A DNA stretch of 64,000 nucleotides from a bacterium (GTDB lineage: Bacteria > UBA8248), in assembly GCA_965207065.1 (NCBI GenBank), contig OZ242260.1:3552001-3616000 (forward strand), given 5' to 3'. Position 1 is the stretch's first letter, and each line of letters begins with the position of its first letter. Of the stretch, positions 3,042-49,844 are shown one piece after another. The notes beneath the pieces are model-generated. The model was not told where the DNA came from. It was given only the letters and a program-made list of their open reading frames with translations, and searched no databases. Position numbers and translations under genes: made by a program.

Positions 3042-3056
3042 GACACTCTTTGTATA

Positions 3057-3870: not shown

Positions 3871-3950
3871 TCATTCCGAGTAGGCGCGCTTGCGCGCCGT
3901 ATCGAGGTAGCGCCCTTCGATACGCCGCCTTCGGCGGCTACTCAGGGTGA
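3871..3950. repeat. REP-like doublet (two inverted GC-rich hairpin units)
   Basis: ccGAGTAGgcgcgcttgcgcgcCGTATCGAgg followed by ccttTCGATACGccgccttcggcggCTACTCagg-type unit. The flanks GAGTAG/CGTATCGA are reverse-complemented in the second unit, and each unit has an internal hairpin. Confidence 0.7.
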
Positions 3951-4008
3951 GACAGATATGGTGGACAGGCAAAACGAGAGTTTGATGTGACTGATCAAGG
4001 AGCAGGAA

Positions 4009-4210
4009 TCACTCCCCCCTTGAGGGTCGGTCTCCCTCGGGGAAGACCGACAACGAGACAAGGGCGGAGCCCGCAGGCGAGTTGGTGGGGGGTATAATTC
4101 GGAGTGGCGATAAAACGCATTTTACCCCCCACCGAATCGGCCTTCGCACAAAACGCTCGGTCTCTTCGTCGGCTTTCCCCTCGGGAAGCCGACCCTCAAG
4201 GGGGGAGTGA
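4009..4210. repeat. REPIN/MITE-like 202-bp palindromic element
   Basis: Perfect 22-bp terminal inverted repeat tcactccccccttgagggtcgg (4009-4030) / ccgaccctcaaggggggagtga (4189-4210), plus internal hairpins and an inner IR ggtggggggta/taccccccacc. Confidence 0.8.
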
Positions 4211-4335
4211 AAGTCTTCTCTTCCAGGTCGGCAACTACTTCAAGGAGGGAGCAATTTCATCAGTTATTATCGAATGAGAAATCCAAATCCTACGTATGGT
4301 GGGGCTTTCTCAAACTCCTTTCGGGCAATTAGCCC

Positions 4336-5526: not shown

Positions 5527-5643
5527 GTCGCCTCCTTGCGCGATAATCCCTCGTGCGAGAGAATAATAATGTCATCGGAAATTTTAAGTATGCGCGGCGC
5601 ATTATAGCGAGCGCACCGAGAATATACGACCGGGAGGAAGCAT

Positions 5644-23488: not shown

Positions 23489-24430
23489 CTAACTCGTCGC
23501 CCCGAGAGCTATTTGAGCGGAGAGTGTCCGACTGAACTCCTCTGCAGAGAAATAACCCATTCTTTGCAGCAACAGATTCCTGGCCGCCACCTCGATGAGT
23601 GTGGGGATATTCCTCCCGGGAGCAACGGGAATTATCACGTGCGGCAGGCACTTTCCCAGGATGTTTTGGGTCTCGATGTCAATCCCAAGACGCTCGAAAG
23701 GCATATCCGGGGTCAAGGGAATCAACTCGACGATCATCTCGACGTTTTTTTCGTATCGAATCGCTACAACGCCAAAGAGATCTTTCAGGTTCAGAATACC
23801 CAGTCCCCTCACTTCTATGTGGTGTTTGAGCAATTCGGTGCTTTTTCCGACTAACTCATTCCCTCGCAACTGGATGTCTACCACGTCATCGGCAACGAGC
23901 CGGTGCCCCCGCGTGACCAGATGCAGAGCGCATTCACTTTTTCCAATACCGCTCTTGCCTTGAATGAGCACCCCCACACCATATAAATCAACGAGGACAC
24001 CGTGCAGTCGCGCATGCAAAGAGAGGTGCTCCTCGAGATATCCCGACAATCTCGGCATCAATTCCTTGCCGGGTAATCCTGAGATGATAATCGGTACGTT
24101 GGACTTATCAGACGCTTCCTGGATACTTGGGAAGATATCTTTCCCACCTGTGACCAACACCGCGCACAAGGGCAAGCGAAAATATTCACGCACGGCCTCG
24201 ATCCGCTTCTCTTCATCGAGGTCATCAAGAAAACGAACTTCCGTGCTACCCCATACCTGAATCCTGTCGGGATGTACAGCTTTCAGAAAACCGGCGAGTG
24301 GCAAACCATTTTTTTGAAAGTGCGTATGATTGATCTGGCGGTTCATGCCAGACTCGCCCGAAATTACGGACAACTTCAACTCTTCCCGCAAATCCGCATA
24401 CAATTGAGATACCGAGAGCTTGCTCATCAT
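23489..24430 (-). CDS. hprK: HPr kinase/phosphorylase
   Basis: HGVLVD, GKSGIGKSECAL, LVADD, IEVRGLGI, PGRN...IEVAARN. Confidence 0.96.
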   Translation of the reverse strand: MMSKLSVSQLYADLREELKLSVISGESGMNRQINHTHFQKNGLPLAGFLKAVHPDRIQVWGSTEVRFLDDLDEEKRIEAVREYFRLPLCAVLVTGGKDIFPSIQEASDKSNVPIIISGLPGKELMPRLSGYLEEHLSLHARLHGVLVDLYGVGVLIQGKSGIGKSECALHLVTRGHRLVADDVVDIQLRGNELVGKSTELLKHHIEVRGLGILNLKDLFGVVAIRYEKNVEMIVELIPLTPDMPFERLGIDIETQNILGKCLPHVIIPVAPGRNIPTLIEVAARNLLLQRMGYFSAEEFSRTLSAQIALGATS

Positions 24431-24672
24431 GTTCCTCGATGCTCTATACACCCGGGGGATTCATTGTCCGATCCAAGAGAACCAAATGAACATTTGTTAC
24501 GAAACAATCAAGATACGATGCTGCGTAAAGGAAAATGGAACGCCCTCCACCGGGGATAATAACAAATATATTTCAAATAACCCACGTATCCAGGAAGCAT
24601 CATCAGCCGCCCCTAGAAACCATGGAGTGCGTAGGTGAGAATTATAAGTCCATGCACGAACCGCAATGATTT

Positions 24673-26109
24673 TTATTGACGCATTTTGCGTCTTTTGCTG
24701 GTGGGAGAGATGCGCAGTTCTTTGCGGTATTTCGTCACTGTCCGCCTCGCAATCGCCACGTTGTTCTGTTTGAGTTTTTCCGCAATTTTCTGGTCAGTGA
24801 GCGGCTTCTCAGGGTTTTCCTCCGTCACCATTTTCTTGATGATTTCCTTTACGGCCAGCGAAGAGGTGCTCTCTCCCGCACTTGATTCCAACCCACTGTG
24901 AAAAAAATACTTAAGGCTCAAAACACCCTGTGGGGTATCCATATACTTGCCCGTCGTAACACGACTCACGGTAGATTCGTGCATCTCGATATCTTGCGCC
25001 ACATCCTTCAAGATCAGGGGCTTTAGGTGGCTCACGCCATGATCCAAGAAATCCTTCTGGAATCGCACAATGCTTCGACAAACTCTGAGAATCGTCTGCC
25101 TTCTCTGCTCTATACTTTTGACGAACCAGACGGCCACCCTCAACTTTTCCTCCAGATACTTCCGCGTATCGGGCGAGGTTCCCGATTTGTCGACTGCCAT
25201 GGCTGCATACTGAGAGTTCACACGCAGGAGTGGCAAACTGTCGTCATTGAGTGTCACCTCATATTCATCTCCTCTTTTGGTGACACTCACATCCGGGATC
25301 ACTATCTCCGCGCCTTGATCGGAAAAACGCAACCCCGGGCGAGGATCGAGACTCCGAATGATGCCGATGGCCTGAACGATGTCTTCCGCAGTAACACCGT
25401 TAACCTTGGCGAGTTTCCCATATTGAGGCTCACCTATATCCTCAATATTCTCTAGCACCAGGATTCTAGCCAAATCCACAAAACAACTGTTTCCGTTTGC
25501 AGGCAACTCGCTATTTTTCAGTTGGATAAGAAGGCATTCTTGAAGTGTCCTCGCAGCAACGCCAGACGGATTGAATCCCTGCACCAACGCCAACGCCCTG
25601 TTTGCCTCGCGAGGCCCAAGACCAACGTAGGCCGCCAACTCATCCACGTCAGCCTCAAGATAACCTTCCTCATTCACATTCCAGATAATTTGTTCAGCAA
25701 CCCTTGCTATCGGCTCGGGAGCCACCGAAAGACTCAATTGCCGCTCCAAGTGTTCATATAACGTATCGGGCCGCGTCAAGGTCTGTTCATGAGAGGGGAA
25801 ATCATCAGCGAGGGTTGGAGACGAAAAATCTTCAAAATTGTCTTGGATGATGTTTTCCCAATCAATCTCACCTCTTTCATCATTTTGATTTTCGGGAACA
25901 TCACCTCTCATTTCCGGCATCTCACCATCAACCACTTCTTTTTCTTCATCCTGAATTTCTTCCAACAAGGGGTTATTCAACATTTCCTGCTGAACGGCTT
26001 GCTGCATTTCCGTGCGGTTCAGAGGCAACAGGCCTATCGCCTGCCGCAACATGGTGGTCATGACAAGACGCTGCTCTGGCCTCATTGTCATCTTATGCTG
26101 CAAAGCCAC
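24673..26109 (-). CDS. rpoN: RNA polymerase sigma-54 factor
   Basis: Q/L-rich region I, HESTVSR, RpoN box ARRTVTKYR; GTG at 26109 with RBS. Confidence 0.97.
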   Translation of the reverse strand: MALQHKMTMRPEQRLVMTTMLRQAIGLLPLNRTEMQQAVQQEMLNNPLLEEIQDEEKEVVDGEMPEMRGDVPENQNDERGEIDWENIIQDNFEDFSSPTLADDFPSHEQTLTRPDTLYEHLERQLSLSVAPEPIARVAEQIIWNVNEEGYLEADVDELAAYVGLGPREANRALALVQGFNPSGVAARTLQECLLIQLKNSELPANGNSCFVDLARILVLENIEDIGEPQYGKLAKVNGVTAEDIVQAIGIIRSLDPRPGLRFSDQGAEIVIPDVSVTKRGDEYEVTLNDDSLPLLRVNSQYAAMAVDKSGTSPDTRKYLEEKLRVAVWFVKSIEQRRQTILRVCRSIVRFQKDFLDHGVSHLKPLILKDVAQDIEMHESTVSRVTTGKYMDTPQGVLSLKYFFHSGLESSAGESTSSLAVKEIIKKMVTEENPEKPLTDQKIAEKLKQNNVAIARRTVTKYRKELRISPTSKRRKMRQ

Positions 26110-26125
26110 GTGGATTCCCCTCACT

Positions 26126-26890
26126 TCAAAGACGAAATTTTTTGCCCAGATAAACATGCCGAGCTTTATCACTTACGGCAATTTTTTCCGGGGTGCCGGA
26201 TTCCAGTATACGCCCCTCATTGATAATGTATGCCCTGTCGGAAATTTGTAGAGCTTCACGTACGTTATGGTCCGTAATGATGACACCAATCCCACGAGCT
26301 TTTAAGCCCACCACTATTTCCTGAATGTCGTTAACCACGATAGGGTCAATTCCTGCGAAAGGCTCATCAAGCAGCATAAAAGTGGGATTTGTGGCCAATG
26401 CCCGAGCAATTTCTACACGCCTTCGTTCACCGCCGGAGAGAGCATATCCCTTCAAGGATTGAATGTGCTGGATATCCAAGCTCTCTAAAATTTCGTTTAA
26501 TCTCCTCTCGCGTTGGTCTGGATCACGCAAGACTAATTCAAGTACCGCCATAATGTTTTGCTTTACCGAAAGGCGACGGAACACAGACGCTTCTTGAGGT
26601 AGGTAGCTGATTCCCTTCTTGGCGCGTACATGCATGGGCTGACCGGTGATTTCTATGCCGTTCAAAAATATTTTGCCCGCATCTGGTGCTATCAACCCGA
26701 CAATCATATAAAATATCGTCGTCTTGCCTGCCCCGTTTGGTCCTAGCAAACCCACGATTTCACCAGGATGCACTTCGAGTTCCACGCCGGAGACAACCGT
26801 CCGGTCTGAATAGCTTTTCGTTAACTTAGTGGCCTGAACAGAAGCAGCACCTTCACGTCTTGCAGCACTACCATCGGTTCGCGTAGACAT
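26126..26890 (-). CDS. lptB: LPS export ABC ATPase
   Basis: [43 protein letters not shown]. Confidence 0.96.
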
Positions 26891-26894
26891 GAGT

Positions 26895-27488
26895 CTAGTT
26901 CGATTTTTTACGGCGGGGTGTCTCGCTGGAAGGGAAAAGAGTAACGTTGACTCTCTGGTCATCCGAGCCATGAACTATCGTTTTATCTTCTTTCAAATTC
27001 AATTCTATTTTGGCGCCGACTAACCGATTCTTTCCTTCCCATACGCGAGGGCTGCCCGTCAAGATTGCGATGCCGGTTGATTCTCGATATTCGAGTCGGG
27101 CAGCAGTGGCGAACCTTCGTTTTGCTTGATTCATCTCTACATTTCCGATGGCCACGATTCTATCGATTTCCCCCGCTCTGCCTTTTGGGGTTGGCTTTCG
27201 CTTGGAGCCGTATTGTTTGGTTTCCAGCGTATAAATTTCGAGGCGATTCGCCTTTAGTCTCATCTTCCCCTGGTTCGCTTCCACATTCCCGATGAACACG
27301 ATGAAATTCTTCCGACTGTTTACTTCCATTTTATCGGAGACAATGTGGATCTGTACCTGGCGGTTTAAGTGACCTTTTTTGTCTTTTTCCTGTGCAGATA
27401 AATTAGTGCCGCTCCACACCAAAAGACCTAAGAATATCCCCAGGCCAATGAGGGTAAGACGTATCAGGCGGTAGTTTTTCAGTTTCAA
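26895..27488 (-). CDS. lptA: LPS transport periplasmic protein
   Basis: Signal peptide, [27 protein letters not shown]; located between lptC and lptB. Confidence 0.88.
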
Positions 27489-27522
27489 AACAGCCCTCCA
27501 TCAGGGAATGGCCGTATTTTCT

Positions 27523-28134
27523 TTAGTTGGCGCGTGTCAGCTTTTTTCCCCTTTTCTCCATAAGGGAATGCCCGCTCCCACCGTATATCGTAGCGCTCAC
27601 TTTCTCCTTCAGCTTGTACTTCCCGATATCGGTATGCCCCTGTAGACCGGTTCCGACAAGACGAAAACGAGCCCCCTCCATTAAGACCTTCGAATCCGAA
27701 TCAATACGTTTCTCTTTTGAGTGAAAATACAAAGAATCTGTTTTCATCGAAACGCCATTAGAAGCCAGGATGGTAACATTTCCGCTGATTCTAATGTTCC
27801 GGCTTTCATTTTGCATGGTTCCTTCTTGAGCAGTCACATGCGATGGATCACCTTCATCCGAGTAAAACCGAAGCTTCAGGTTCTTAAGAATGGTCAAGCC
27901 TTTTTGGCGATAGACCTTGGCTGAGTCAGCCCACAACTCCCATTCCCTAACACCTTTTGTGTTCTGGACAACATGCATTTTATCTATGTTTAGGTCCGCA
28001 TCCGAGTTTGTGAGCGAAAATTCTCCTAAATGGAGTTGATGATTTGAAGAACCCAAGATGAAATAGGCAATAGTACCGCCCATCACGAGCAGAAAGCCCA
28101 GCAACACCGTTCTCAGCATCTTACGGAATAGCAT
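27523..28134 (-). CDS. lptC: LPS export periplasmic protein
   Basis: N-terminal TM, WELWADSA, GNV, TDSL beta-jellyroll pattern; synteny with lptAB. Confidence 0.85.
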   Translation of the reverse strand: MLFRKMLRTVLLGFLLVMGGTIAYFILGSSNHQLHLGEFSLTNSDADLNIDKMHVVQNTKGVREWELWADSAKVYRQKGLTILKNLKLRFYSDEGDPSHVTAQEGTMQNESRNIRISGNVTILASNGVSMKTDSLYFHSKEKRIDSDSKVLMEGARFRLVGTGLQGHTDIGKYKLKEKVSATIYGGSGHSLMEKRGKKLTRAN

Positions 28135-28324
28135 CGCAAACCTTCTGAAACACAGGCGGTATTCAACGACAGCACATGTCATATCTGTGATAAGAAACTC
28201 ATCCCTCCAAAGCCATGAAATTTATTTTCTCGTACTGGTTACATCTGTTACATCAAAGAAGATAAGCAAAAACAACGCCCTGTAAGAGTGCCACCCTTTA
28301 CTTTCTTTGTAAAGAAGAAATATT

Positions 28325-38299: not shown

Positions 38300-39496
38300 C
38301 TATTTGCCTTTGGTGCTCTGAGAAGATGGTTTTGTTACGTCCTTCATTTTCCCTACTTGCTTCTCTTTTTTCGTTATCGCTGCCGGTACACTACCAAAAA
38401 GATAGTACACGCTGTCCTTATAGGTGGCAAAGATCATTAAACCGATGAGCAGAACAGTACCCACTTGCATGGCCATCTCCCGGACCCTGAGACTAATAGG
38501 TCTGCCACGCAAGCTTTCAATAAGCAAGAAAAAAATATGGCCACCATCGAGAACCGGAATCGGCAGCAAGTTCAAAATCGCCAGATTGACGCTGAGCAAA
38601 ATCGTAAACATGACAAGATAGCGAAATCCGCGCTGCGCCTGCTCTGCGGCCACCACAGAAATACGAATCGGCCCGCCAATGTCCGCAGGAATGGTCTTCG
38701 TCAGCATCGAATACAACGTAATGACCGTTAAGCTGGCGATGCGATAGTTTTGCTCAAAACCCTTTCCCAAAGACTCAAAGAAGCCGAAACGCTCGGTATA
38801 GGTGCCTTGACCGATACTGATGCCGATTCGGCCGTAACCTAAATCTTTGCCCGTCGAACTCATCGATGTCGGAACAATGGGCGTTTCAAAGGATTTGCGA
38901 CCGCGTTCCACCGTCAACACGAGTTTTTGATCGGCATTTTTTCGAACTATTTCGACAAGCTCGGACCATCTTTGAATTCTCGTCCCATCAATGGCCACGA
39001 TGTGATCGCCGGTTTCAAGGTTCGCTTTTTGCGCAGGCGTATCGGGCAAAACACCGCCTACCCACGTGCCAGGCACTGGAATACCACCAAGGTGCAATCC
39101 CCAACTGAGGAGTATCGCCAGGATGACATTAAACAAGGGTCCCGCTGAAATGACAGCCAATCGGTGACTCACAGGACGTAAATAGAAAGATTTCTCCGGC
39201 TCATCCGGCACTTTGGGCGCATCTGGATTGTCAGCTTGCGCTTCCGGGTCTTCTCCTACAAGCTTTACATAGCCACCCAAAGGGATTAGGGAAACGCGAT
39301 ATTCCGTCTCTCCCCGCTGGAAACCCCAGATACGACGACCGAAGCCCAAGGAAAATGTGGAAACGCCGATTTTGAGCCATTTCGCGACGAGATGATGGCC
39401 CAATTCATGGATAAAAATGAGTAACCCCAGAACCAGCACAGCCCAGAAAATCGTCTGCCCAAACCCCATCACCCAGTTTATGATTTGCATCGCCAT
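38300..39496 (-). CDS. rseP: RIP metalloprotease RseP
   Basis: HELGH, PLGGYV, AGPLFN, PDZ domain, NLLPIPVLDGG. Confidence 0.96.
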   Translation of the reverse strand: MAMQIINWVMGFGQTIFWAVLVLGLLIFIHELGHHLVAKWLKIGVSTFSLGFGRRIWGFQRGETEYRVSLIPLGGYVKLVGEDPEAQADNPDAPKVPDEPEKSFYLRPVSHRLAVISAGPLFNVILAILLSWGLHLGGIPVPGTWVGGVLPDTPAQKANLETGDHIVAIDGTRIQRWSELVEIVRKNADQKLVLTVERGRKSFETPIVPTSMSSTGKDLGYGRIGISIGQGTYTERFGFFESLGKGFEQNYRIASLTVITLYSMLTKTIPADIGGPIRISVVAAEQAQRGFRYLVMFTILLSVNLAILNLLPIPVLDGGHIFFLLIESLRGRPISLRVREMAMQVGTVLLIGLMIFATYKDSVYYLFGSVPAAITKKEKQVGKMKDVTKPSSQSTKGK

Positions 39497-39510: not shown

Positions 39511-40245
39511 TTATTTTTTACTGGCCGCACCGGCCGGCATTTGTAGAACTTCGACATTTGGCGGCACGATAAACTGAAATTCCTCTTTTGCGATTTTGAC
39601 GTTTTCTTTGACATTTGAAAACCGCAGGTGACTTTTGTTGCCTATGTTATCAATATAAGCCAAAGCAAGGATTCTGAAATTCTCAGGTTCCACCTCGAGC
39701 CACATCCGGCGAAACGCAGCACCCGCAGACTTCGGCTCCAAGCGAATACGATGGGGTTGACCGGCTTTCCAGATTCCTCCGCTTCGTCTGGCAACTCCAA
39801 TCTCTTCCACTGTGACATGAAAATTCTTCTTCAAATTCCCCTTGCCGGACAAAAATAACAATGGGGTGGCGCCTAATCCACTCCCCCCGTTATCGGAGAC
39901 CATAACCTGCCTGAAACGCGCAGTATAGAGCCAAAACGTACGACCATCGGAAACCATAACCTGCTTTTCAGGCTTGACATACTCCATGCGCAGTTTGCCG
40001 GGTTTCATCCACAAGAGGCTTCCGCTCGACGTCGTCGTTCGCCCAAGAGATTTCAATTCATTTTTCTGCTCGAAAGAGGCTTGCAGAGAATCGAGCACGT
40101 CATATTTTTTCTGCAGCTCACTGATTATTTTCTCCGCCTTCAGACGCGATTCTTCCGCTAGAGACGTACCAAGAGCGTATCCTTGCATGAGCGCGATAAA
40201 CAAAAAAACAACTGCCAGTCTTAAGAAGAAATCTGATTTGCGCAA
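39511..40245 (-). CDS. lolA: Outer-membrane lipoprotein carrier
   Basis: ASFEQ, KPGKLRMEY..P, VSDG, FQFIVPPNVEV; start uncertain. Confidence 0.87.
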   Translation of the reverse strand: MRKSDFFLRLAVVFLFIALMQGYALGTSLAEESRLKAEKIISELQKKYDVLDSLQASFEQKNELKSLGRTTTSSGSLLWMKPGKLRMEYVKPEKQVMVSDGRTFWLYTARFRQVMVSDNGGSGLGATPLLFLSGKGNLKKNFHVTVEEIGVARRSGGIWKAGQPHRIRLEPKSAGAAFRRMWLEVEPENFRILALAYIDNIGNKSHLRFSNVKENVKIAKEEFQFIVPPNVEVLQMPAGAASKK

Positions 40246-40270
40246 AACTTTTGTAATCCTCTTTGAATGA

Positions 40271-40924
40271 TTACTCCGAAACAGGCGAGATGAAACCGCT
40301 ACCCTCCTGATGAGCGTTCCCTGAATACTGCACAACACCATCGACGCAGTGAACACTCCCCTCGGCGATGAGCCTTACCGCCAATGGGTATATTCTGTGT
40401 TCATAACCGAGAATTCTCTCCGAAAGGGTTACTTCATCATCATGAGGTAACACCGGTACGGCGGCTTGTAAAATGATCGGCCCCGTATCCACTCCTTCGT
40501 CCACAAAGTGGACCGTGCAGCCAGTCACTGTCACACCAGCATCTAAAGCTTTTTTTTGCGCATGCAGACCAGGGAAACTCGGTAGAAGCGAGGGATGAAT
40601 GTTGATGATTTTCCCTGGAAAGCGACTTACAAACTCCGGCGGTAAAATCCGCATAAAACCAGCACAACAGATTAGATCGATTTCGCAATTTTCGATCTCA
40701 TCTCCCATCTTCAGGTAAAACCCTTCCTCTTTGGGTGCGAGATGTCTATGTCGTAATCCAGCTATAGAGGCGCGCTCAAGGGCGTACGAATTCCTTTTGT
40801 CACTCAGTACCAATACGACTTCCGCCGGAAAATCCGATTTCTGCCCGGCATCAATGAGGGCTTGCAGGTTCGACCCACGCCCAGAGGCCAAAACACCCAC
40901 TCGTAATCGTGTCCTTGCATGCAC
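40271..40924 (-). CDS. purN: Phosphoribosylglycinamide formyltransferase
   Basis: SGRGSNL, AGFMRIL, NIHPSLLP, GCTVHFV, DTGPII. Confidence 0.97.
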   Translation of the reverse strand: MHARTRLRVGVLASGRGSNLQALIDAGQKSDFPAEVVLVLSDKRNSYALERASIAGLRHRHLAPKEEGFYLKMGDEIENCEIDLICCAGFMRILPPEFVSRFPGKIINIHPSLLPSFPGLHAQKKALDAGVTVTGCTVHFVDEGVDTGPIILQAAVPVLPHDDEVTLSERILGYEHRIYPLAVRLIAEGSVHCVDGVVQYSGNAHQEGSGFISPVSE

Positions 40925-40927
40925 TAT

Positions 40928-41980
40928 TTATATGCCTTCAATGACGACGGAATGACCACCTTTGGGTTTTCTGACAACTTCGCCAACAACCGTGGGGCGT
41001 TCTCCTGCAGTTTTCAAACATTCGAGCACAGATTCAACTCGCTCCGACCTCACGAGAAAGACAAAACCCAAGCCCATGTTAAAAATGTGATACATCTCCG
41101 CGCTGTCAACCGGGCCAAACTCTTGAATCAATGAGAATATCTCAGGCATCACCCATTTTTCAGGATAAAATTTAGCCTGCAATTCATCCGGCATCACACG
41201 ATTTACATTTCCCGGAATTCCACCTCCCGTGATGTGCGCGATGCCACTAATCCCCTCATCTCTCCGAATGGAAAGAACCCCTTTCGTGTAAATTCTGGTC
41301 GGCTCCAATAATACATCTTCAATGGGAACGCCTAGCCTTTGCCCCGCCACATCCCGTGTTTCTTTTGATTCAAATATTTTACGTACCAAGGAATATCCGT
41401 TGCTATGAATTCCTGAAGAAGAAAGTGCGAGTATGGCATCGCCGGTCTTGACAGGTGTCCGATTGTCCAGGGTTTTGCGTTCAACCACCCCCACAGCGAA
41501 TCCAGCAACATCATACACGCCCGGCTCATACATGTTAGGCATCTCGGCGGTTTCGCCACCGAGGAGGGCGCATCCTGCCTCCCGGCATCCCAGTGCAATC
41601 CCGGATACGACTGCCTTCAAAACATGTTGATTGATCTTGCCTGTCGCAATGTAATCAAGAAAAAAAAGCGGTTCTGCTCCCATAGTCAGTATGTCGTTGA
41701 CGCACATGGCCACCAAGTCGACCCCGATGGAATCATGGCGCCCGAACTCTTGGGCCAAGAGTAATTTCGTGCCGACGCCGTCGGCGCCTGAAACAAGTAC
41801 AGGATCTTCATATTCCCCGCCCAGACGGAACAAACCCGCAAAATCCCCCGTCCCCTTCAGGATACGGTCACTTTGACCAACATGGGTGGATTTTACGATT
41901 TGGGCGATAGCCTGAACGAAACCCTCTCCCAACTCCACATCGACGCCCGCATCGCGGTATGTCAGACGGTCCTCATTCAA
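40928..41980 (-). CDS. purM: AIR synthetase
   Basis: YRDAGVD, DGVGTK, AMCVND, GGETAEMP, HSNGYS, HITGGG, FNMG. Confidence 0.97.
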   Translation of the reverse strand: MNEDRLTYRDAGVDVELGEGFVQAIAQIVKSTHVGQSDRILKGTGDFAGLFRLGGEYEDPVLVSGADGVGTKLLLAQEFGRHDSIGVDLVAMCVNDILTMGAEPLFFLDYIATGKINQHVLKAVVSGIALGCREAGCALLGGETAEMPNMYEPGVYDVAGFAVGVVERKTLDNRTPVKTGDAILALSSSGIHSNGYSLVRKIFESKETRDVAGQRLGVPIEDVLLEPTRIYTKGVLSIRRDEGISGIAHITGGGIPGNVNRVMPDELQAKFYPEKWVMPEIFSLIQEFGPVDSAEMYHIFNMGLGFVFLVRSERVESVLECLKTAGERPTVVGEVVRKPKGGHSVVIEGI

Positions 41981-42031
41981 TAGTGATGTTCCCTGATTTA
42001 ACAGGCGGAATCGAACGGAATGTACTCAAAA

Positions 42032-44167
42032 TCAGCCATGGACTTCCATCAATTTCTTGACTAAAGCTACATTATGTCGGTGTCCACTTCTCTCAGCGGT
42101 CACTTTTCCGCGGATGGGACGACCGGTTAAATACAGATCTCCTATTACATCAAGAATTTTATGGCGAACAAATTCATTGGAGAATCGCAATTGGGTATTC
42201 ACGACTCGCGATTTGTCTACAAGAATCACATTATCCCAACGACCACCTTCGGCCAATCCCATTTTCTCAAGCGACTCGAGTTCAGAGACAAAGCCAAATG
42301 TACGGGCCGGTGCGATTTCTTCTTGAAAACTCAATGCGTTCTTATGTTCATAAAGATATGATTGTTTCCCAATCGGCTTAGGATAATCGATGAGGTATGT
42401 TACAGAAAAAGAATCCGAAGGCTCTATGCGAATGTAACCCTTCTCGTCATTCGGTTCACCTACCTCATATACCTGGTCAACCCACAATTCCTCGCGTTTT
42501 TCTTTCTGATCTTCAATGCCAGCTTCTTCAAGCAAGCGACAAAACTCCACCGCAGATCCATCCATTACTGGTACTTCTTCACTCATTTTGACGAGTATAT
42601 TGCTAATTTTGTATGCGTGCAGCGCACTCATGAGATGCTCTATCGTTCGAGCCGTCACTGCTCCATTGCGCAAGTTTGTCGCATGGTTGGTGCCATCCAC
42701 GAAATCGACATTTGCCTTCACGATATCGGGGCTTGTCAGGTTGCCAAACTGAATTCCGCTCCCCGGCGGCAAAGGTTCGATGATTAATCCTGTCTTCAAC
42801 CCTGAATGAAGCCCCCGGCCGTACAACACGACACTTTTTGAAATACTCCTTTGATTTGTTTCCCTTAGGTTCGTCGACGCCGACGTTACGGGCTCTATAT
42901 TGTATGCTTTAATTTTTCGTTTTAAAGCCGGTTTCGTCATCCCCACCGCCTGGGCGGTTTTGAGGATATCCCAACCGTGCTCCTCCAAATGGAAGGAAAG
43001 GTATTGTCTCTCCCACTGGGTTCTGGCCAAATTAAAATTAGAAGGGGCGTCGTCTTTTGATGATGTGTGCGTCGCTAAATCAGAAGCTTCGCGTATCGCG
43101 TACGGCAAGTGGCTGATGTCAATCTCCGAGCCTTGCGATGAATATGCCGCTTTGGTCACCGCGCCTTTTAATTCAGCAATATTGCCCGGCCAGTCATAGT
43201 CTTCCAGAAGCGCAATGACATCCTCTGAAAATTCCTTTTCATACCTGTCAGCTTCCATGCATTCACTCAAAAATCTGTTGGCCAGCGGCAAAATATCCTC
43301 TTTGCGCTCGCGCAAAGGTGGCAGGTGTATTACATCAGCGCCTATTTTTGAGGACAAGGCTCTTACATAGGCCTTGTCATTCAGGGCACCCATATGATCA
43401 ACGGATACCATTAAACGCATTGATCCTTTCGTATGCCCGAGGAATCTCACAAGAAATATCTCCTGCTCCGCCATGGGCAGTTGCTCCAAACCATCAAGGT
43501 ATGCCGTCCCTTGGAAGGCATCAGGCAACAGCCGTTCCAAGACATTTTCCCATTCGCTTATTTCCGTCACAGGAAACAGCGAACGGCAATGAATCGGCCT
43601 AAATCCTTCTTCTTTCCGAATACCGTTCTTGTGAATCATCCTGGCAACAAAACGCTTCCCAGTACCTCTTTCACCTGCGATTAGCAAAGGGCTTAAATCT
43701 TTCGCGGCTTTACGTATGGCCCGTCGAACCTTTTGAATATTATTGCTATTTCCGTCAAGCATTACATCAACGACATCACTTGCCTTCAGTTCTTTGGCTC
43801 TTCGCGCTTGAACGGCGGAATCGACAATACGCAAAACCGCATCAATAGAAAGGGGTTTTTCAATGAAATTAAAAGCGCCTAACTTTGTCGCAGCTACGGC
43901 GGTTTCAATATTGCCATGGCCCGACATCACGACGACTTCGATATCCGCGTTCGATTCTTTCACTGCTTGCAAAGTCTTGATGCCGTCAATTCCGGGCATC
44001 CATACATCAACCAAAACCACATCCGGTGTTTCGGTTCGAACTAATTGAAGGGCTGTTTCGCCAGATTCGGCCCGCTCAACACGATATCCTTCATCGTGCA
44101 ATACATCTTCCAAGCTCGCGAGAATTTCGCGCTCATCATCGACGATAAGCACATGTCCCTTATCCAA
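42032..44167 (-). CDS. lpxC: Fusion protein: NtrX-like response regulator (REC + degenerate AAA+ + Fis-type HTH) joined to LpxC deacetylase
   Basis: One 711-aa ORF. REC motifs VDDE/LVDVWMP/SGHG/EKP; GERGTGK; WPGNIAEL; HTH; then QRSI...GRGLHSG, TIEHLMSAL, EVPVMDGSA, EIAPARTFGF, RHKILDVIGDL, SGH. Confidence 0.92.
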   Translation of the reverse strand: MDKGHVLIVDDEREILASLEDVLHDEGYRVERAESGETALQLVRTETPDVVLVDVWMPGIDGIKTLQAVKESNADIEVVVMSGHGNIETAVAATKLGAFNFIEKPLSIDAVLRIVDSAVQARRAKELKASDVVDVMLDGNSNNIQKVRRAIRKAAKDLSPLLIAGERGTGKRFVARMIHKNGIRKEEGFRPIHCRSLFPVTEISEWENVLERLLPDAFQGTAYLDGLEQLPMAEQEIFLVRFLGHTKGSMRLMVSVDHMGALNDKAYVRALSSKIGADVIHLPPLRERKEDILPLANRFLSECMEADRYEKEFSEDVIALLEDYDWPGNIAELKGAVTKAAYSSQGSEIDISHLPYAIREASDLATHTSSKDDAPSNFNLARTQWERQYLSFHLEEHGWDILKTAQAVGMTKPALKRKIKAYNIEPVTSASTNLRETNQRSISKSVVLYGRGLHSGLKTGLIIEPLPPGSGIQFGNLTSPDIVKANVDFVDGTNHATNLRNGAVTARTIEHLMSALHAYKISNILVKMSEEVPVMDGSAVEFCRLLEEAGIEDQKEKREELWVDQVYEVGEPNDEKGYIRIEPSDSFSVTYLIDYPKPIGKQSYLYEHKNALSFQEEIAPARTFGFVSELESLEKMGLAEGGRWDNVILVDKSRVVNTQLRFSNEFVRHKILDVIGDLYLTGRPIRGKVTAERSGHRHNVALVKKLMEVHG

Positions 44168-46424
44168 TGAAAGCCGTCCTTTGTTTTTCAGGTGTGATGT
44201 CCACAGTAGGCGCCAGAGGCAACGTTACACGGAAAACAGAGCCAACAGGATGGTTATCTCGCACGCCTATTGTTCCATTGTGATCTGCCACAATGCGGTG
44301 ACATATAGCCAAACCTAACCCGGAACCTCTATCTTTTGTCGAAAAGTAAGGCGAGAATATATGTCCTTTCATATCTTCCGATATACCCTGCCCCTGGTCG
44401 GCAACTTCAACAACTATCATATTTCTATCCATATTACTCCATGCTTGCAAATCTATCTCGCCATCAACTTCATGGGATTCGAATGCGTTTTCCAATAAAT
44501 TGATGAACACACGTTGCAACTGCTCGGGATCCGCCATGACAACTGCATTCCCGGTATCAATCTGCATCGAAAATTTCACGTTCCCTTTTCTGTCACGATA
44601 TAAATTTGCAACATCCTCAATCAGTGGAACAAACTCGCAAAGCCTTAATCTCGGCTCCGGCATTCGCGCAAACCGGCTGAATTCATTCACCATTTCAATC
44701 AGACTCGTTACCTGATTAATAATGGTATCGGTACAAGATTCGAATACTTCCGCAAAATCATAGGCTTCAATTTCAAATTTCCTTCTCATTCTCTGAGCGG
44801 AGAGCTGTATTGGCGTAAGTGGATTTTTGATCTCGTGCGCGATGCCACGAGCCACTTCCTGCCATGCGGCGACTTTTTGAGCCCGAATCAAGGCCGTCAT
44901 ATCATCAAACACAATGACGGCACCAAGCCTGCCACCATCCGCGCTTTTGAGAAGGGTCAAGCTCGCGCGCAACGTCAATACACGGCCATCAATCATGACT
45001 TCCACCTGCTCCGATGCGCTTTGGTGGTCTCGGTTTCTCATAGAACGCATCAACTGACGAACAGGCTCGAGATGTGCGCTTTCAAAAATTTCGCTGAACA
45101 ATCGTCCCACGGCGTTCTGGGGTTCTATGCTCAGCAACTCCCCTGCCGCTTTGTTTAGAATAGTAACGCGCCCTCGGCGGTTGATTGATATCACACCCGC
45201 TCCAATATTTTCGAGCATCGCTTCCATATATCTGCGCCTTCTGTCGATTTCCATATTGGACCGACGCAGGATTTCAGAAGATTCTTCAATTTTCTCTTTG
45301 TTAGCCAGCAATTCTTCCGTCATGCTGTTAAACGCGTTGACCAAAATTCCCACTTCGCCATCTGCTTGCGCATCCACGCGATGTTCCAGATCGCCATCCG
45401 ATACGGCCCTGGTGGCGTCTGCTAACTTTTCGATGGGAACCGTGATCCCGCGAGCGAGGTAGAAGCCAAACCATATGGCGGCAAAGAGAATGAGCAAGGT
45501 GACAACCAAGAAAGTGATGATGTAATTAGCTTTGATGGGATTCTTGGACAGTTCCAATTCTTTATAATTCACAAAGGAATCCGATATGCCTCTGATCTTC
45601 TCCACGAGCCTATCAGACACATATTTAGATACAACGATAAACCCCACCACTTTATTTTGAATCCTCAAAGGCGCCACGCCGTAAATAACATCACCTTTTT
45701 CCCAATTCTCAATACTCGATCGTGACTCCCCATCAATTACCTGATCCACGTATCCCACCAGTGGCGAGAACATTGCGCCTCGTCCTAAGCCAGGACGCTT
45801 GACCGATACAATCTCCTTCCGCTCTCTATCGTAGAGTTGGATAAAATCTACCCCCAGGCTCTTTCTCTCGGACTCCAATATTTTTCCGACAGCCTTAGGG
45901 TTTTCCAATGAATCGGGATGCGCTTTCTCCAACATAAGAGCTAGTCGACTGGCACTGAATAGCGCGTTTCGCTCCACTTCGCGATAATAGGTTTGAGCCA
46001 CTTCAAACGACCCTTTCAATGCTCTTTCCACATTCATGTTGAACAAGGCGTTGAAACTTTGGTTAATCAAACCACTAGCCACCACAAAAAGAGCTACTAC
46101 CGGAATGAGCGTAAAACCGACAAAAGCCAACACGAGCTTCAATTGTAAGCGCGAACGACCAGCGCCCGTTCTACCTTCGTAGTAAAGACGCACCAAGTTC
46201 TTCGCCACCAATAGAATAACCACCATGAGCAGAATGATACTCAGGTTCACTAGTGCAAAAACGACGACGTTGTTCAGTAATGGAACTCCCGGCTCAAGTT
46301 CCTTGAAATAAATCCAAGCCGTGAATGAAAGAGTCGCTATGATGATCAAAGCGATGAATGACCGCAGAAGTGTTCTCCGTCGTCGCAAAGAGGTTTCCTG
46401 ATTTTTCAATTGAGCTGGATGCAC
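44160..46424 (-). CDS. ntrY: NtrY-like sensor histidine kinase (TM-periplasmic-HAMP-PAS-HisKA-HATPase)
   Basis: AAWQEVARGIAHEIKNPLTPIQLSAQR is the NtrY-type H-box; NLLENA, DQGQG, PYFSTK, GSGLGL; overlaps the downstream gene by 8 nt. Confidence 0.88.
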   Translation of the reverse strand: MHPAQLKNQETSLRRRRTLLRSFIALIIIATLSFTAWIYFKELEPGVPLLNNVVVFALVNLSIILLMVVILLVAKNLVRLYYEGRTGAGRSRLQLKLVLAFVGFTLIPVVALFVVASGLINQSFNALFNMNVERALKGSFEVAQTYYREVERNALFSASRLALMLEKAHPDSLENPKAVGKILESERKSLGVDFIQLYDRERKEIVSVKRPGLGRGAMFSPLVGYVDQVIDGESRSSIENWEKGDVIYGVAPLRIQNKVVGFIVVSKYVSDRLVEKIRGISDSFVNYKELELSKNPIKANYIITFLVVTLLILFAAIWFGFYLARGITVPIEKLADATRAVSDGDLEHRVDAQADGEVGILVNAFNSMTEELLANKEKIEESSEILRRSNMEIDRRRRYMEAMLENIGAGVISINRRGRVTILNKAAGELLSIEPQNAVGRLFSEIFESAHLEPVRQLMRSMRNRDHQSASEQVEVMIDGRVLTLRASLTLLKSADGGRLGAVIVFDDMTALIRAQKVAAWQEVARGIAHEIKNPLTPIQLSAQRMRRKFEIEAYDFAEVFESCTDTIINQVTSLIEMVNEFSRFARMPEPRLRLCEFVPLIEDVANLYRDRKGNVKFSMQIDTGNAVVMADPEQLQRVFINLLENAFESHEVDGEIDLQAWSNMDRNMIVVEVADQGQGISEDMKGHIFSPYFSTKDRGSGLGLAICHRIVADHNGTIGVRDNHPVGSVFRVTLPLAPTVDITPEKQRTAFIG

Positions 46425-46427
46425 AAT

Positions 46428-47033
46428 TCACATTCCTTCAGAGCTAAATGTCTGGGAATAGCTCCAATCAGACTGCTTCCCCCAAAAAGCGAGTAAGTAA
46501 TTAAAGGGAAAAACAAAATCCACATGATTCAGCCGCGCTCTGATTTTTACATAATATCGACTATTTGGGGACAAGGTCTTCCCAGTGACAATGGGCGCGC
46601 CATTCAATTCACGCATCCAGTCCGTCATCTCACCTTGGCTTTTCGTCACTTTTCTCTCGATCTCTTTTTCACCTTCTTTGAGATGAAAAGTGTAAGTTTT
46701 TTTCAAGGCGCTATATTTCACTTGATGATGTAATTGCCGCGAGGTGACTTCCAAATCATAAATCAGCTTGCGAGAGCGAAGGAGACTTACATCAAAGATG
46801 AACTTCGTCGTCACACCACTATGAATAGCTTCCAACAGTTTTGGCGTAAATGCGCCCAATAGAGAACCAAAAACAAGCAACTGTCCATTCTTGTTAATTA
46901 CAATAATATCATTTACCCGGATCCCATCTTGGTTGTCTGTTGCGGCGAGCGCCGGCGCCACCAGAGCAAAAATTATACAGACCGCCAGGACAAGTTTCCT
47001 AAGAACAAATGTTTTCCGGGTGTTAGATAACAT
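46428..47033 (-). CDS. Exported protein, DUF4390-like
   Basis: Signal peptide (ALA-A), EAIHSGV...F...L...Y..L...Y pattern; immediately upstream of the NtrY-like kinase as in known DUF4390-ntrY-ntrX operons. Confidence 0.7.
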   Translation of the reverse strand: MLSNTRKTFVLRKLVLAVCIIFALVAPALAATDNQDGIRVNDIIVINKNGQLLVFGSLLGAFTPKLLEAIHSGVTTKFIFDVSLLRSRKLIYDLEVTSRQLHHQVKYSALKKTYTFHLKEGEKEIERKVTKSQGEMTDWMRELNGAPIVTGKTLSPNSRYYVKIRARLNHVDFVFPFNYLLAFWGKQSDWSYSQTFSSEGM

Positions 47034-47090
47034 ATGTTCCCCTCAGCCTTGAAATTCAATGTTATCGCATATGAAAAAAGCTCTCAATAC

Positions 47091-47113
47091 ATTGTATGAC
47101 TTCACTAACTTCA
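47091..47113 (-). promoter_or_regulatory. Shared motif copy 1 (TGAAGTTAGTGA-N5-TACAAT) upstream of the DUF4390-ntrY-ntrX/lpxC operon
   Basis: Matches 50296-50318 at 17 of 18 non-spacer positions, in the same orientation and at a similar distance from the start codon. Confidence 0.55.
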
Positions 47114-47144
47114 TGCTCACGCAGCACTTCCAGATGGTGCGCTG

Positions 47145-49844
47145 TTAACTAGTCCCACTTTTGGGGTTTTCAACGTTTGCCATGACCTTCCTGAGTTCAT
47201 ACAGGGCTTCGAGAGCTTGGCGAGGTGTCATGGAATCCGGATCAATACCTTTCAACAACTTTTCAATTTGTGATTCCTGACGTAAGAATAAAGGCAATTG
47301 CCCATTCCCCCGGCGATTTTCCAAAAAGGATTTTTCCTCGCTGGAACGGGAAACTGCTTCTGTACTTTCAAACTTAGAGAGCAAAGCCTTGGCACGGTCG
47401 ATCACCTCCTCCGGAAGCCCCGCCAACCTGCCAACCTGAATACCGTAGCTTCTATCGCAACTGCCATCGGTTACTTTTCGTAAGAAAACTATTTCATCAC
47501 CCCACTCTCGGACTTCGACCGTTAAGTTTTTCACACTGGTGAGCTCTTTTGAGAGTTCGGCCAGCTCATGATAGTGGGTCGCGAACAATGTCCTCGCCCT
47601 GTGACGGATCTCATTATGAAGATACTCTACAATTGACCAAGCGATGCTCACTCCATCATATGTGCTCGTGCCTCGCCCGACCTCATCCAGCACGATGAAA
47701 CTTCTCTGTGTAGACTCTTTTAATATGGTGGCCGTTTCCACCATTTCCACCATGAAGGTGCTTTGCCCCTCTAAAAGTCGGTCATGCGCGCCAACGCGAG
47801 TGAACACCCTATCCACTAGACCGATTTTTGCGCTCTTCGCTGGTACGAAGCTGCCAATTTGCGCCATTAGAATTATAAGTGCTGATTGACGCAGGTAAGT
47901 GGATTTTCCCGCCATATTCGGCCCTGTAATGATGAGGATTCGGCGATCGTCACGGATCGATAAATCATTCGGCACAAAAGCGATGCCAGGGTTCTCCGCT
48001 TCCATGACGGGATGTCTTCCCTCAATAATTTCAAGATCTGTAGAATCCAAAATCTGGGGTCTTACATATCCATATTTGCGTGCAACAAGCGCCAAGGACA
48101 AAACGGCATCTAGAATCGCTATTCTCTCGGCGGCGGCAAGAATGCGCTTGGCTTGTTGAGATATTTGCGCTCTTAATCGTCCAAAAAGCATAAACTCGAG
48201 ATGATGGGCTTTCTCCTCTGCTCCGAGAATGTCTTCTTCCATTTTTTTTAACTCGGAAGTGATGTATCGCTCTGCAGAAACGAGGGTCTGCTTGCGCGTA
48301 TATTCCATTGGCGCCTGCTCACTGAATCGTTTGGATATCTCTAGATAATATCCAAAAACGCGATTGAACCCGATTTTCAAAGGCAGTCCCGTTCGTTCTT
48401 TTTCCCTGTTTTCATAATCCTTGAGCCACAAATCACCCTCCTGCTGCGCCTTTCGCAACCTTGCAAGTTCCTGGTCATATTCAGTGCGAAAAATTCCACC
48501 CTCTCGAATCGAAACAGGTGGCTCATCCACAATCGCTTTATTCAGTTCCAACGCTACATCCTCGAGAGAATCCCACCCCCTCAAAACGGAATGAAACAAC
48601 TCAGCGGCCATCCCTTTGATCGCCTCATAAACCTCCGGCAACATAGTCAATGAGCCGCCAAGTCCAGCTAGGTCCCGTGCATTCGCAGTTTGAGAACCTA
48701 CGCGTCCCAGGAGCCGTTCGATATCTTGAATGGGCTCAATGACGTTTTTGAGCTGATTCAGGATATCGGTATTATTCACGAGTTCTTCTATGGATTCGGC
48801 ACGAAAATCGATGGCTTGTTTTTGAATCAATGGTGAAAGGACCCATTTTTTCAGCAATCGTCCTCCCATACCTGTCTGCGTCTCATCCAACAAACCAAAC
48901 AAAGTACCTTTTTTCCCACGATCCACCGCCGAGCGAGTGAGTTCTAAATTTCGCAACGTGGCTGCATCGAGAACCATAGTGTCTGAGAGGCGGGAAAAAA
49001 GCACAGGCTTGAGATGAGGGAAATTGCCAGGCTGGTTTTCTTTGAGATACGTCAAAATACCTACGGCGGAATCAACCGCAGACGGGTTCGTCCGAACACT
49101 CGCTTCATCAGGAAATATATTATCCAGGCTATTGAAATCAAGTGGTTCCTGAAAAGTGGCTGGCGGCCTTTTTTCAACATGAATGCTTAGTTCATCAATT
49201 TTGTTTTTCAACTCATCGGGCGGGGAAAATACATCTGGCAAGATGAGTTCGCGAGGAGAGAGTCTCTCCAATTGGTTGCAAATAAGCGTCTCGGCGGCAT
49301 CTCCTTCTACCTGAGTCGCACAAAACTCACCGGTCGAACTATCTAGCCATGCCATTCCCCAAAGCGCCTCACCTTCACTGGCCGATACGGTGATACCCGC
49401 CAAATATTGAGATTCCTTGCTATCAATTAACTTGAGGTCTGCAATCGAGGTGCCCGGAGTGAGAACGCGAGTCACCTCACGCTTTACCACTCCCTTGCTT
49501 TCTCCTGTGTCTTCCACCTGCTCGCAAATGGCGACTTTAAAACCCGCTTCCAGCAATCGCCCACAATAAGTGGAAGCCGAATGACAAGGCACGCCACACA
49601 TCGGTATGGGCCCTTTGTCATCACTCTGGCGCGATGTTAATGCGAGTTCCAGTACTTTCGCCCCGAGTTTCGCGTCTTCATAAAACATTTCAAAAAAATC
49701 ACCCAACTGAAAAAACAGCATCGCATCCGGATAACGTCTTTTCATTTCCAGGTATTGGCGCATCGCAGGAGATGGACCACGGTTCCTGTTTCTCGATGTA
49801 TTTTTTCCTTTGTTTGATCGCAGTGCACCTTTGGGGGGAGACAT
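47145..49844 (-). CDS. mutS: DNA mismatch repair protein MutS
   Basis: GDFFEMF, TGPNMAGKST, STFMVEM, DEVGRGTS, FATHYHEL, SYGIQV. Confidence 0.98.
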   Translation of the reverse strand: MSPPKGALRSNKGKNTSRNRNRGPSPAMRQYLEMKRRYPDAMLFFQLGDFFEMFYEDAKLGAKVLELALTSRQSDDKGPIPMCGVPCHSASTYCGRLLEAGFKVAICEQVEDTGESKGVVKREVTRVLTPGTSIADLKLIDSKESQYLAGITVSASEGEALWGMAWLDSSTGEFCATQVEGDAAETLICNQLERLSPRELILPDVFSPPDELKNKIDELSIHVEKRPPATFQEPLDFNSLDNIFPDEASVRTNPSAVDSAVGILTYLKENQPGNFPHLKPVLFSRLSDTMVLDAATLRNLELTRSAVDRGKKGTLFGLLDETQTGMGGRLLKKWVLSPLIQKQAIDFRAESIEELVNNTDILNQLKNVIEPIQDIERLLGRVGSQTANARDLAGLGGSLTMLPEVYEAIKGMAAELFHSVLRGWDSLEDVALELNKAIVDEPPVSIREGGIFRTEYDQELARLRKAQQEGDLWLKDYENREKERTGLPLKIGFNRVFGYYLEISKRFSEQAPMEYTRKQTLVSAERYITSELKKMEEDILGAEEKAHHLEFMLFGRLRAQISQQAKRILAAAERIAILDAVLSLALVARKYGYVRPQILDSTDLEIIEGRHPVMEAENPGIAFVPNDLSIRDDRRILIITGPNMAGKSTYLRQSALIILMAQIGSFVPAKSAKIGLVDRVFTRVGAHDRLLEGQSTFMVEMVETATILKESTQRSFIVLDEVGRGTSTYDGVSIAWSIVEYLHNEIRHRARTLFATHYHELAELSKELTSVKNLTVEVREWGDEIVFLRKVTDGSCDRSYGIQVGRLAGLPEEVIDRAKALLSKFESTEAVSRSSEEKSFLENRRGNGQLPLFLRQESQIEKLLKGIDPDSMTPRQALEALYELRKVMANVENPKSGTS

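Follow-up and report, generated by a model that had tools for sequence, protein, structure and literature searches.

An NtrX-like response regulator fused in frame to a sole LpxC suggests phosphorylation control of lipid A synthesis

LpxC catalyses the step that commits a cell to lipid A synthesis and sets its flux, and it has long been a target for antibiotics. Its regulation is well understood only in enterobacteria, where it proceeds by FtsH/LapB/YejM proteolysis; in Escherichia coli, FtsH uses the C-terminal tail of LpxC. In the relevant parts of a 2025 review, lipid A regulation in other bacteria is described as largely open (PMC12444477). Here we analyse a bacterial gene in which LpxC is joined in one reading frame to a two-component response regulator. 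It lies in a stretch of 64,000 nucleotides of contig OZ242260.1 (assembly GCA_965207065.1, positions 3,552,001–3,616,000), called the window below, to which all coordinates refer. The locus raises the question of whether a phosphorylation signal acts on the enzyme itself rather than on its transcription. The joining of the sole LpxC gene of this genome to a two-component receiver suggests that outer-membrane lipid synthesis may be switched directly by phosphorylation.

Domain make-up of the fusion protein

The initial annotation of the locus, made from the sequence alone, described one open reading frame (ORF) of 711 codons encoding a receiver (REC), an AAA+-like domain, a helix-turn-helix (HTH), a linker and a full LpxC domain, and the ORF list, Pfam and NCBIfam bear this out (Table 1). 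The start codon is TTG, and the start MDKGHVLIVDDE agrees with the N-termini of homologues in the alignment.

The LpxC domain is also recognized by the NCBIfam model for lpxC (TIGR00325, 238.2 bits, above the cut-off of 187.25). It contains the motifs TIEH (E510-H511), HKILD (H669-K670-D673) and SGH (H696) as well as D677; the Zn ligands are H511, H669 and D673, and the catalytic residues are E510 and H696. When aligned to solved Pseudomonas aeruginosa LpxC chains, E510/H511, H669/K670/D673 and H696 fall on the identical E77/H78, H237/K238/D241 and H264, in agreement with the active site first read from the sequence, and the Zn and catalytic residues are invariant in 75 sequences. Deacetylase activity on UDP-3-O-acyl-GlcNAc is predicted from the full-length domain and the complete set of catalytic residues. 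The domain thus resembles the enzymes of P. aeruginosa, Aquifex aeolicus and E. coli in its length and in its identical catalytic Glu and His, Zn ligands, and Thr, Lys and Asp. Unlike the solved LpxCs, it forms the C-terminal domain of a 711-residue regulator: the 28 solved sequences matched are all stand-alone chains of 267–312 residues, with one 400-residue chain matching from its residue 101. The protein stops 4–5 residues past the end of the alignment with the solved LpxCs and therefore lacks the last ~25–30 residues of the E. coli enzyme (305 residues); the absence of an E. coli-type tail soon after SGH had been correctly noted at the outset.

Two other identities were considered for this domain and rejected. 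A bifunctional LpxC/FabZ enzyme was ruled out, since the protein has no FabZ domain and ends where the LpxC domain ends; the corresponding model (NF009667) gives 216.6 bits against a cut-off of 465, through its LpxC half alone. The protein shares with LpxC/FabZ the joining of LpxC to another protein, whereas its partner is a signalling protein and not a pathway enzyme. A separate LpxC translated from an internal start was rejected because no in-frame ATG, GTG or TTG occurs between the HTH and Q439; an AGGAG sequence is present at the junction, and the next in-frame GTG, 16 nt further on, is already inside the LpxC domain.

The receiver retains D10, D11, D54 (LVDVWMP), S82 and K104-P105. In alignments of 54 and 75 sequences D10 and D11 are invariant and D54 is conserved in at least 90%, K104 is invariant in the 54 and conserved in at least 90% of the 75, and position 82 is kept as Ser or Thr across the homologue alignments. 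The first description of the receiver as keeping its acidic pair, phospho-acceptor, Ser and Lys-Pro therefore holds, these positions being invariant or nearly so. With the acidic pocket, the phospho-acceptor Asp, Ser/Thr and Lys all kept, the receiver looks functional.

The N-terminal 422 residues have NtrX (NF051870) as their top NCBIfam family at 261.3 bits, with the equivalog cut-off of 600 not reached; on these scores the N-terminal part is NtrX-like but falls short of an NtrX equivalog call. The best solved relative of residues 5–422 is NtrX, PDB 5m7n (167 bits), deposited as 'Nitrogen assimilation regulatory protein', which we take to be Brucella NtrX. The protein resembles NtrX of the NtrY/NtrX system in its order of REC, AAA+ and Fis-type HTH, in the lack of GAFTGA, and in having a partner kinase with an NtrY N-terminal region. 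It differs in lacking the Walker B Glu, in scoring so far below the NtrX cut-off, and in carrying a complete C-terminal LpxC; we know of no characterised NtrX that does.

The module first called AAA+-like is indeed present and is more exactly a degenerate NtrX-type domain without the sigma-54 contact loop. The classical Sigma54_activat model matches only residues 139–197. The Walker A sequence is GERGTGKR, LDG without a Glu stands in the place of Walker B, and the GAFTGA loop is absent. The loss of the Walker B Glu and of GAFTGA means that the protein is not a sigma-54 activator, despite the presence of rpoN in the genome and in the window. Among 52 long fused forms, the Walker A pattern G..G.GK is retained in 49, the Walker B 'DE' in four, and GAFTGA in none. 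The HTH is modelled as three helices at residues 377–421 (predicted local distance difference test, pLDDT, of 79–93 for the block).

The fusion as sole LpxC and its family

The genome, a single contig of 4.48 Mb that is 96% complete, has exactly one LpxC match, which is the fusion gene. LpxB (277.6 bits) and the LpxA C-terminal domain (86.5 bits) were found elsewhere in the genome and LptC, LptA and LptB in the window, so that the lipopolysaccharide (LPS) pathway depends on the fusion gene. Within the phylum (51 species genomes; Nitrospinota by the names of homologues), 50 genomes have an LpxC match, one each, and the exception is a genome that is 93% complete. Full coverage of the LpxC model is reached by 45 matches, whose open frames measure 646–755 residues (35 matches), 432–538 residues (nine) and 356 residues (one, from a 67%-complete assembly), and none of them is of stand-alone size; the other matches are contig-end fragments. 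Outside the phylum, ten of ten fusion-bearing genomes (completeness not stated) gave no LpxC match besides the fused one.

Among the checks listed in the initial annotation were those on the junction, on a second lpxC in the genome and on the occurrence of the architecture elsewhere; no second lpxC was found, and the other two also came out in favour of the fusion. Contigs from two runs of different studies cover 42000–44400 without an indel, one with 16 substitutions and the other identical to the window, of which it may be the source. In addition, a 490-nt contig from a metatranscriptome library spans the HTH/LpxC junction (42715–43193), which is only a hint because RNA libraries can contain DNA; two RNA runs (X15 and X16) reach parts of the gene only, and the uncovered parts carry no meaning. 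In a collection of 5.8 billion proteins, PF03331 is present in all of the best 120 clusters listed and PF00072 in 116 of them, at identities from 99% down to 40% and under the source names Nitrospinae/Nitrospinota, Tectomicrobia, Schekmanbacteria and Thermodesulfobacteriota. The fused frame is therefore kept in several phyla, and the earlier caveat that it may already be annotated was justified: it is machine-annotated in many genomes as 'LpxC' or 'NtrX'.

These data leave practically no room for an artefact or accident, such as a lost stop codon, a misassembly, or an inactive fusion whose LpxC function comes from elsewhere. At one locus the receiver portion and the AAA-LpxC portion do fall in separate frames: in a Thermodesulfobacteriota metagenome-assembled genome (MAG; L014, 3005–5667) a REC-AAA ORF (3005–4369) overlaps an AAA-HTH-LpxC ORF (4006–5667), through either a frameshift or an assembly error. 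Against this stand the same fused frame in 120 of the best 120 clusters and throughout the phylum, the independent contigs without an indel, the lack of a second LpxC in this genome and in the ten others tested, and the strong purifying selection described below. As far as sequence data reach, such an explanation is already refuted, the fusion is confirmed as real and an assembly artefact is ruled out.

We searched for the family among 1.84 billion representatives at 50% identity and sorted the best 150 by domain hidden Markov models. At least 15 clusters of these 150 are long forms (REC-AAA-HTH-LpxC, 650–736 residues) and at least 23 are short forms (REC-LpxC, ~370–505 residues). The short forms occur in Nitrospinota (L006, P0053 and P0074) and in records labelled Thermoanaerobaculia/Holophagales, Thermodesulfovibrionia, Desulfocapsaceae and 'Deltaproteobacteria'. 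Two proteins, P0132 (491 residues) and P0134 (505 residues), are REC-HTH-LpxC intermediates in which the AAA+ domain is deleted and the HTH kept, and in this they resemble the AAA-less NtrX/PlrR of betaproteobacteria.

An LpxC tree of 102 rows was built with eight N-truncated AAA-LpxC fragments excluded (LG+G4 quick search, Shimodaira–Hasegawa-like approximate likelihood ratio test, SH-aLRT, midpoint root). The 21 unfused LpxCs form one clade (SH-aLRT 99), and the fused side (78 rows, SH-aLRT 87) holds all 37 long forms, 36 of the 39 short forms and five 'unfused' rows, of which at least one (P0144) is a fragment with an HTH remnant. Short forms, that is REC-HTH-LpxC and REC-LpxC, are nested within long-form clades, and the well-supported branches require the 'short' label to have changed at least 10 times. 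A tree of the REC and AAA+ parts (147 rows) places the 37 long forms on one side of a branch (40 rows, SH-aLRT 100) together with three shorter proteins that look like C-terminal fragments. Since the fused LpxC domains group together and the fused N-terminal parts group together, the family would have had one main origin followed by repeated internal deletion. The three remaining REC-LpxC proteins (P0201, P0219 and P0227) have their LpxC on a distant long branch and a REC that scores poorly (62–66 bits) against the fused-family profile; they may represent a separate, second fusion.

In the window's genus, the ratio of nonsynonymous to synonymous substitution rates (dN/dS) is 0.02 for REC, 0.04 for LpxC, 0.19 for AAA+ with its lid and 0.14 for the HTH, values that are rough because dS is ~0.9–1.1, near saturation, and that come from six pairwise comparisons, of which four are independent once the duplicates L003/L007 and L005/L008 are counted once. 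On this pattern REC and LpxC are the selected core, and the middle of the protein is relaxed, not dead.

Gene neighbourhood and unfused relatives

On the minus strand the gene order is mutS, DUF4390, ntrY-like, fusion, purM, purN, lolA and rseP (Table 1). The kinase carries an NtrY_N match just over the cut-off (23.5 bits against 23.2). The ntrY stop overlaps the fusion start by 8 nt, and the product is a candidate cognate kinase, translationally coupled to the fusion. The order DUF4390-ntrY-fusion-purM is kept in both close relatives with long flanks (L007 and L008), and ntrY lies directly 5' of the fusion in the close relatives L002–L005, L007 and L008, in a short-form Nitrospinota locus (L006) and in two loci of other phyla (L010 and L019). 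As side observations from other phyla, a ClpB-like double-AAA protein abuts the start of one REC-LpxC gene without an adjacent kinase (L020, 3002–5992), and another such orphan (L015, 5438–5875) has an Hsp20 neighbour, a stress or proteostasis protein.

The DUF4390 protein is a predicted accessory of the NtrY-type kinase. In Bordetella, a 2026 paper shows genetically that PlrSR, a system of the NtrYX family, has a third component in the periplasm, the DUF4390 protein PlrP, and the gene order PlrP-PlrS-PlrR is, as in the window, DUF4390, kinase, regulator (PMC13001219). The betaproteobacterial PlrR-type regulators differ from the window's fusion in lacking both AAA+ and LpxC, and the term 'LpxC' does not occur in that paper (PMC13001219).

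We then compared 80 related loci, comprising 7 long fused, 12 short fused, 55 unfused NtrX-like and 6 LpxC-only loci; two of the 55 'unfused' loci (L009 and L014) are really fused and were cut or frame-shifted. Upstream DNA of 4.5 kb or more is available for 34 unfused loci with ntrY directly ahead of the regulator; 12 of them have lpxC on the same strand 2.2–3.5 kb before the regulator, and L076, with a shorter flank, is a thirteenth lpxC-(DUF4390)-ntrY-regulator locus. The 13 loci belong to Desulfobacterales, other 'Deltaproteobacteria', Acidobacteriota and Rokubacteria, and their regulators have GAFTGA in 8 of 13 and the Walker B Asp-Glu in 12 of 13 cases. In 6 of the 13 loci the lpxC start is preceded, at a distance of 37–77 nt, by a TGGCAC-N5-TTGC element matching in at least 9 of 11 positions, with 0.45 expected from the loci's own background; all six (L027, L028, L048, L076, L083 and L084) are GAFTGA-positive. 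The 5' part of lpxC is written as N in L071 and is not assessable. These elements suggest that lpxC transcription is sigma-54-dependent in Acidobacteriota, Rokubacteria and 'Deltaproteobacteria'.

Published systems point the same way, as far as the consulted parts of the papers describe them. In Desulfovibrio vulgaris, lpxC is the single DNA target of the regulator DVU2934, in Syntrophobacter fumaroxidans lpxC lies directly upstream of the orthologous regulator operon, the same arrangement as in the 13 unfused loci here, and orthologues of DVU2934 were noted in Acidobacterium and Geobacter (Rajeev et al. 2011, PMC3333781). By this published description, the kinase/regulator pair DVU2931/DVU2934 resembles the window's system in being a two-component regulator tied to lpxC, and differs from it in that control in D. 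vulgaris is transcriptional and the genes are separate. Alphaproteobacterial NtrYX lowers lpxC transcription and LPS: in Rhodobacter sphaeroides without ntrYX, lpxC mRNA rises 8.8-fold and LPS is increased (PMC7240162), and NtrYX is described in a review as an inhibitor of lpxC transcription in both R. sphaeroides and Caulobacter crescentus (PMC12444477). We infer that the fusion arose from a regulatory system already tied to lpxC.

The neighbourhood of FtsH, lolA and RseP makes the region rich in envelope genes. About 14 kb downstream of the fusion and on the same strand lies the classical cluster lptC-lptA-lptB-rpoN-HPr kinase (23489–28182). A scan of 40200–47400 for sigma-70 promoters and terminators gave fewer sites than shuffled sequence; a promoter-like site inside the fusion gene (42926–42899, 9 of 12 positions) is not above chance. 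The sigma-54 -24/-12 pattern has 8 matches in the window against 4.46 expected, a number reached by 9 of 100 shuffles, and none lies upstream of the DUF4390-ntrY-fusion cluster.

Table 1. Features of the fusion gene and its neighbourhood in the window.
Feature	Position	Strand	Residues	Details
Fusion gene, 711 aa + stop	42032–44167	-		REC, NtrX-type AAA+ with lid, HTH, linker, LpxC; single uninterrupted ORF
Response_reg (PF00072)	43826–44152	-	6–114	Pfam, 104 bits
Codon of phospho-acceptor D54	44006–44008	-	54	GAT
Sigma54_activ_2			139–285	Pfam, 50 bits
AAA_lid_14			286–367	Pfam, 74 bits
AAA+ domain with lid	43067–43753	-	139–367	degenerate NtrX-type
HTH_8, Fis-type	42902–43018	-	384–422	Pfam, 20.1 bits, just below cut-off of 22
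Tether between HTH and LpxC	42854–42901	-	423–438	pLDDT <50 at 429–433
LpxC (PF03331)	42047–42853	-	439–707	Pfam, 281.5 bits (cut-off 27), model positions 1–267 of 268
NtrY-like histidine kinase, 754 aa	44160–46424	-		NtrY_N, HAMP, PAS, HisKA, HATPase_c (Pfam)
DUF4390 (PlrP-like) protein, 201 aa	46428–47033	-		PF14334, 97.5 bits; first gene of cluster
lolA	39511–40356	-		follows purM and purN downstream of fusion
RseP-type site-2 protease	38300–39496	-
FtsH, 656 aa	31170–33140	-
lptC	27523–28182	-
lptA	26895–27488	-
lptB	26126–26971	-
rpoN	24673–26172	-
HPr kinase	23489–24451	-

Control of the enzyme

We consider it fairly probable that NtrY-type control of lpxC was once transcriptional and is here exerted on the enzyme directly, through phosphorylation. 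The proposed system would be a three-part envelope sensor, made of the DUF4390/PlrP-like protein, the NtrY-like kinase and the NtrX-like regulator, with the sole LpxC covalently attached. NtrY, under the influence of the DUF4390 protein, would determine how far D54 is phosphorylated. By way of its long alpha-5 helix and a shift in the dimer or oligomer state or in intramolecular packing, the receiver would then govern the output of the tethered LpxC, be it its activity as a catalyst, its access to substrate or its stability. Lipid A flux would in this way be set post-translationally by a two-component signal, which would replace the LapB/FtsH proteolysis of E. coli. Candidate mechanisms are a phosphorylation-driven rearrangement of dimers, a CheB-like relief of occlusion and a phospho-dependent stability. 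Historically, an NtrY-partnered sigma-54 activator of lpxC transcription would have gained lpxC as its C-terminal domain, after which control would have shifted to the protein level, the activator motifs decayed, and AAA+ and HTH been deleted repeatedly. From the architecture, conservation, sole-copy status, gene context and constraint pattern observed here we infer phosphotransfer from NtrY and an effect of phosphorylation on LpxC, along with its direction and physical mechanism. The proposal of the initial annotation that phosphorylation sets LpxC output has thereby gained comparative support, from the sole copy, the constraint on REC and LpxC, the repeated reduction to REC-LpxC and the coupled NtrY-like kinase; its mechanism is still the conjectural part.

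CheB, in which a receiver is linked to a catalytic domain and phosphorylation changes enzyme activity, can serve as a working analogy: the short REC-LpxC forms share its layout of receiver, linker and enzyme. The enzyme itself is unrelated to that of CheB, and the AlphaFold models do not predict an inhibitory interface between REC and the enzyme. The models of the 711-residue protein (mean pLDDT 89.5, predicted template modelling score, pTM, 0.55) and of the 445-residue short form P0074 (90.1, pTM 0.68) show confidently predicted domains, a long alpha-5 helix (residues 108–131/134) and low-confidence linkers (365–376 and 429–433 in the long form, 138–167 in P0074). A complex prediction of REC (1–125) with LpxC (436–710), run on 75-row alignments and without controls, scored 0.01 against a mark of 0.32 and is neutral on binding.

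Several observations weigh against direct control of the enzyme. A fixed REC-LpxC interface appears in neither AlphaFold model, and pTM is moderate in both; as no inter-domain arrangement is confident, the models give no verdict on the mechanism. Outside the Nitrospinota lineage, many of the fused genes lack a kinase gene next to them, and the neighbours of orphan fused genes at the eight loci examined are ClpB-like proteins, peptidase M28, Hsp20, methyltransferases or proteins without a family. In the window's lineage purifying selection still acts on the AAA+ and HTH domains (dN/dS 0.14–0.19), so that they would still have some function, possibly DNA binding. Tree support comes from a quick search with arbitrary (midpoint) roots. 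With FtsH encoded in the window, LpxC may also be under proteolytic control. In favour of direct control, by contrast, are the missing C-terminal tail of LpxC and the lack of a LapB equivalent: none was found in the genome with NF008757, presumably the LapB family (best match 27 bits against a cut-off of 363), nor any match to the LapB-related PF18073, whose absence weighs little because the model is unspecific (10 of 14 control genomes match).

With an artefact set aside, two other explanations compete with enzyme control. The protein could be a transcription factor with a passenger enzyme, in which phosphorylation controls DNA binding only, LpxC is constitutive, and the fusion fixes co-expression, stoichiometry or location. 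The retained HTH and AAA+ lid and the selection on them fit this explanation, as do the prediction of the HTH as a confident three-helix unit, the Walker A motif in 49 of the 52 long forms, and the fact that relatives are known DNA-binding regulators of lpxC, as described in parts of PMC3333781. We nevertheless hold it to be unlikely: HTH and AAA+ were lost many times while REC-LpxC was kept, the short forms outnumbering the long ones among the best 150; the receiver of a short form, with its phospho-site intact, has only LpxC as a target; and the activator motifs are gone or nearly gone from the long forms.

Quite improbable, in our estimate, is a role of the LpxC domain as a sensor, whose occupancy by substrate or product would report the state of the pathway to the HTH and feed back on gene expression. 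Enzymes with a second role as regulators are generally known, and the HTH lies ~15 residues from LpxC, but a sole LpxC with invariant catalytic residues indicates that catalysis is the selected function, the short forms have no HTH, and the phospho-site of the receiver, the most conserved part, would be left unexplained. The related suggestion of the initial annotation, that enzyme state feeds back on DNA binding, is not favoured as a function of the family at large, since the HTH is gone from many lineages.

Direct phosphorylation control of LpxC can be extended to a wider picture, which we offer only tentatively. The DUF4390-NtrY-NtrX system may be an ancient lipid A homeostat, with lpxC driven in several phyla from a sigma-54 promoter beside the system's own genes and the circuit hard-wired elsewhere by the LpxC fusion, namely in Nitrospinota and under the labels Thermodesulfobacteriota, Acidobacteriota (Thermoanaerobaculia), Nitrospirota (Thermodesulfovibrionia), Tectomicrobia and Schekmanbacteria. 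There a phosphorylation-gated committed step of LPS synthesis would stand in for LapB/FtsH, and the shrinkage to REC-LpxC would be the completed shift.

The initial annotation knew of no characterised example, and our literature search turned up none: a full-text search, with most subscription journals outside its scope, found no paper that describes an LpxC-receiver or LpxC-NtrX fusion, and in the 2025 Journal of Biological Chemistry review of lipid A regulation the words fusion, fused and response regulator are absent (PMC12444477).

Taken together, the comparisons make the fusion of interest to the fields of both LPS regulation and NtrYX. NtrYX has been tied to nitrogen, redox and envelope phenotypes, and the fusion, the conserved lpxC neighbourhood and the putative sigma-54 promoters before lpxC in distant phyla point to lipid A control as a core function of this system. 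The series from separate genes under sigma-54, through a fusion with decaying activator motifs, to REC-HTH-LpxC and finally REC-LpxC would be an unusually clear evolutionary record of regulation that shifts away from transcription and onto the enzyme. If true, the covalent joining of LpxC to a phospho-receiver across a whole phylum would be a new regulatory principle for LpxC.

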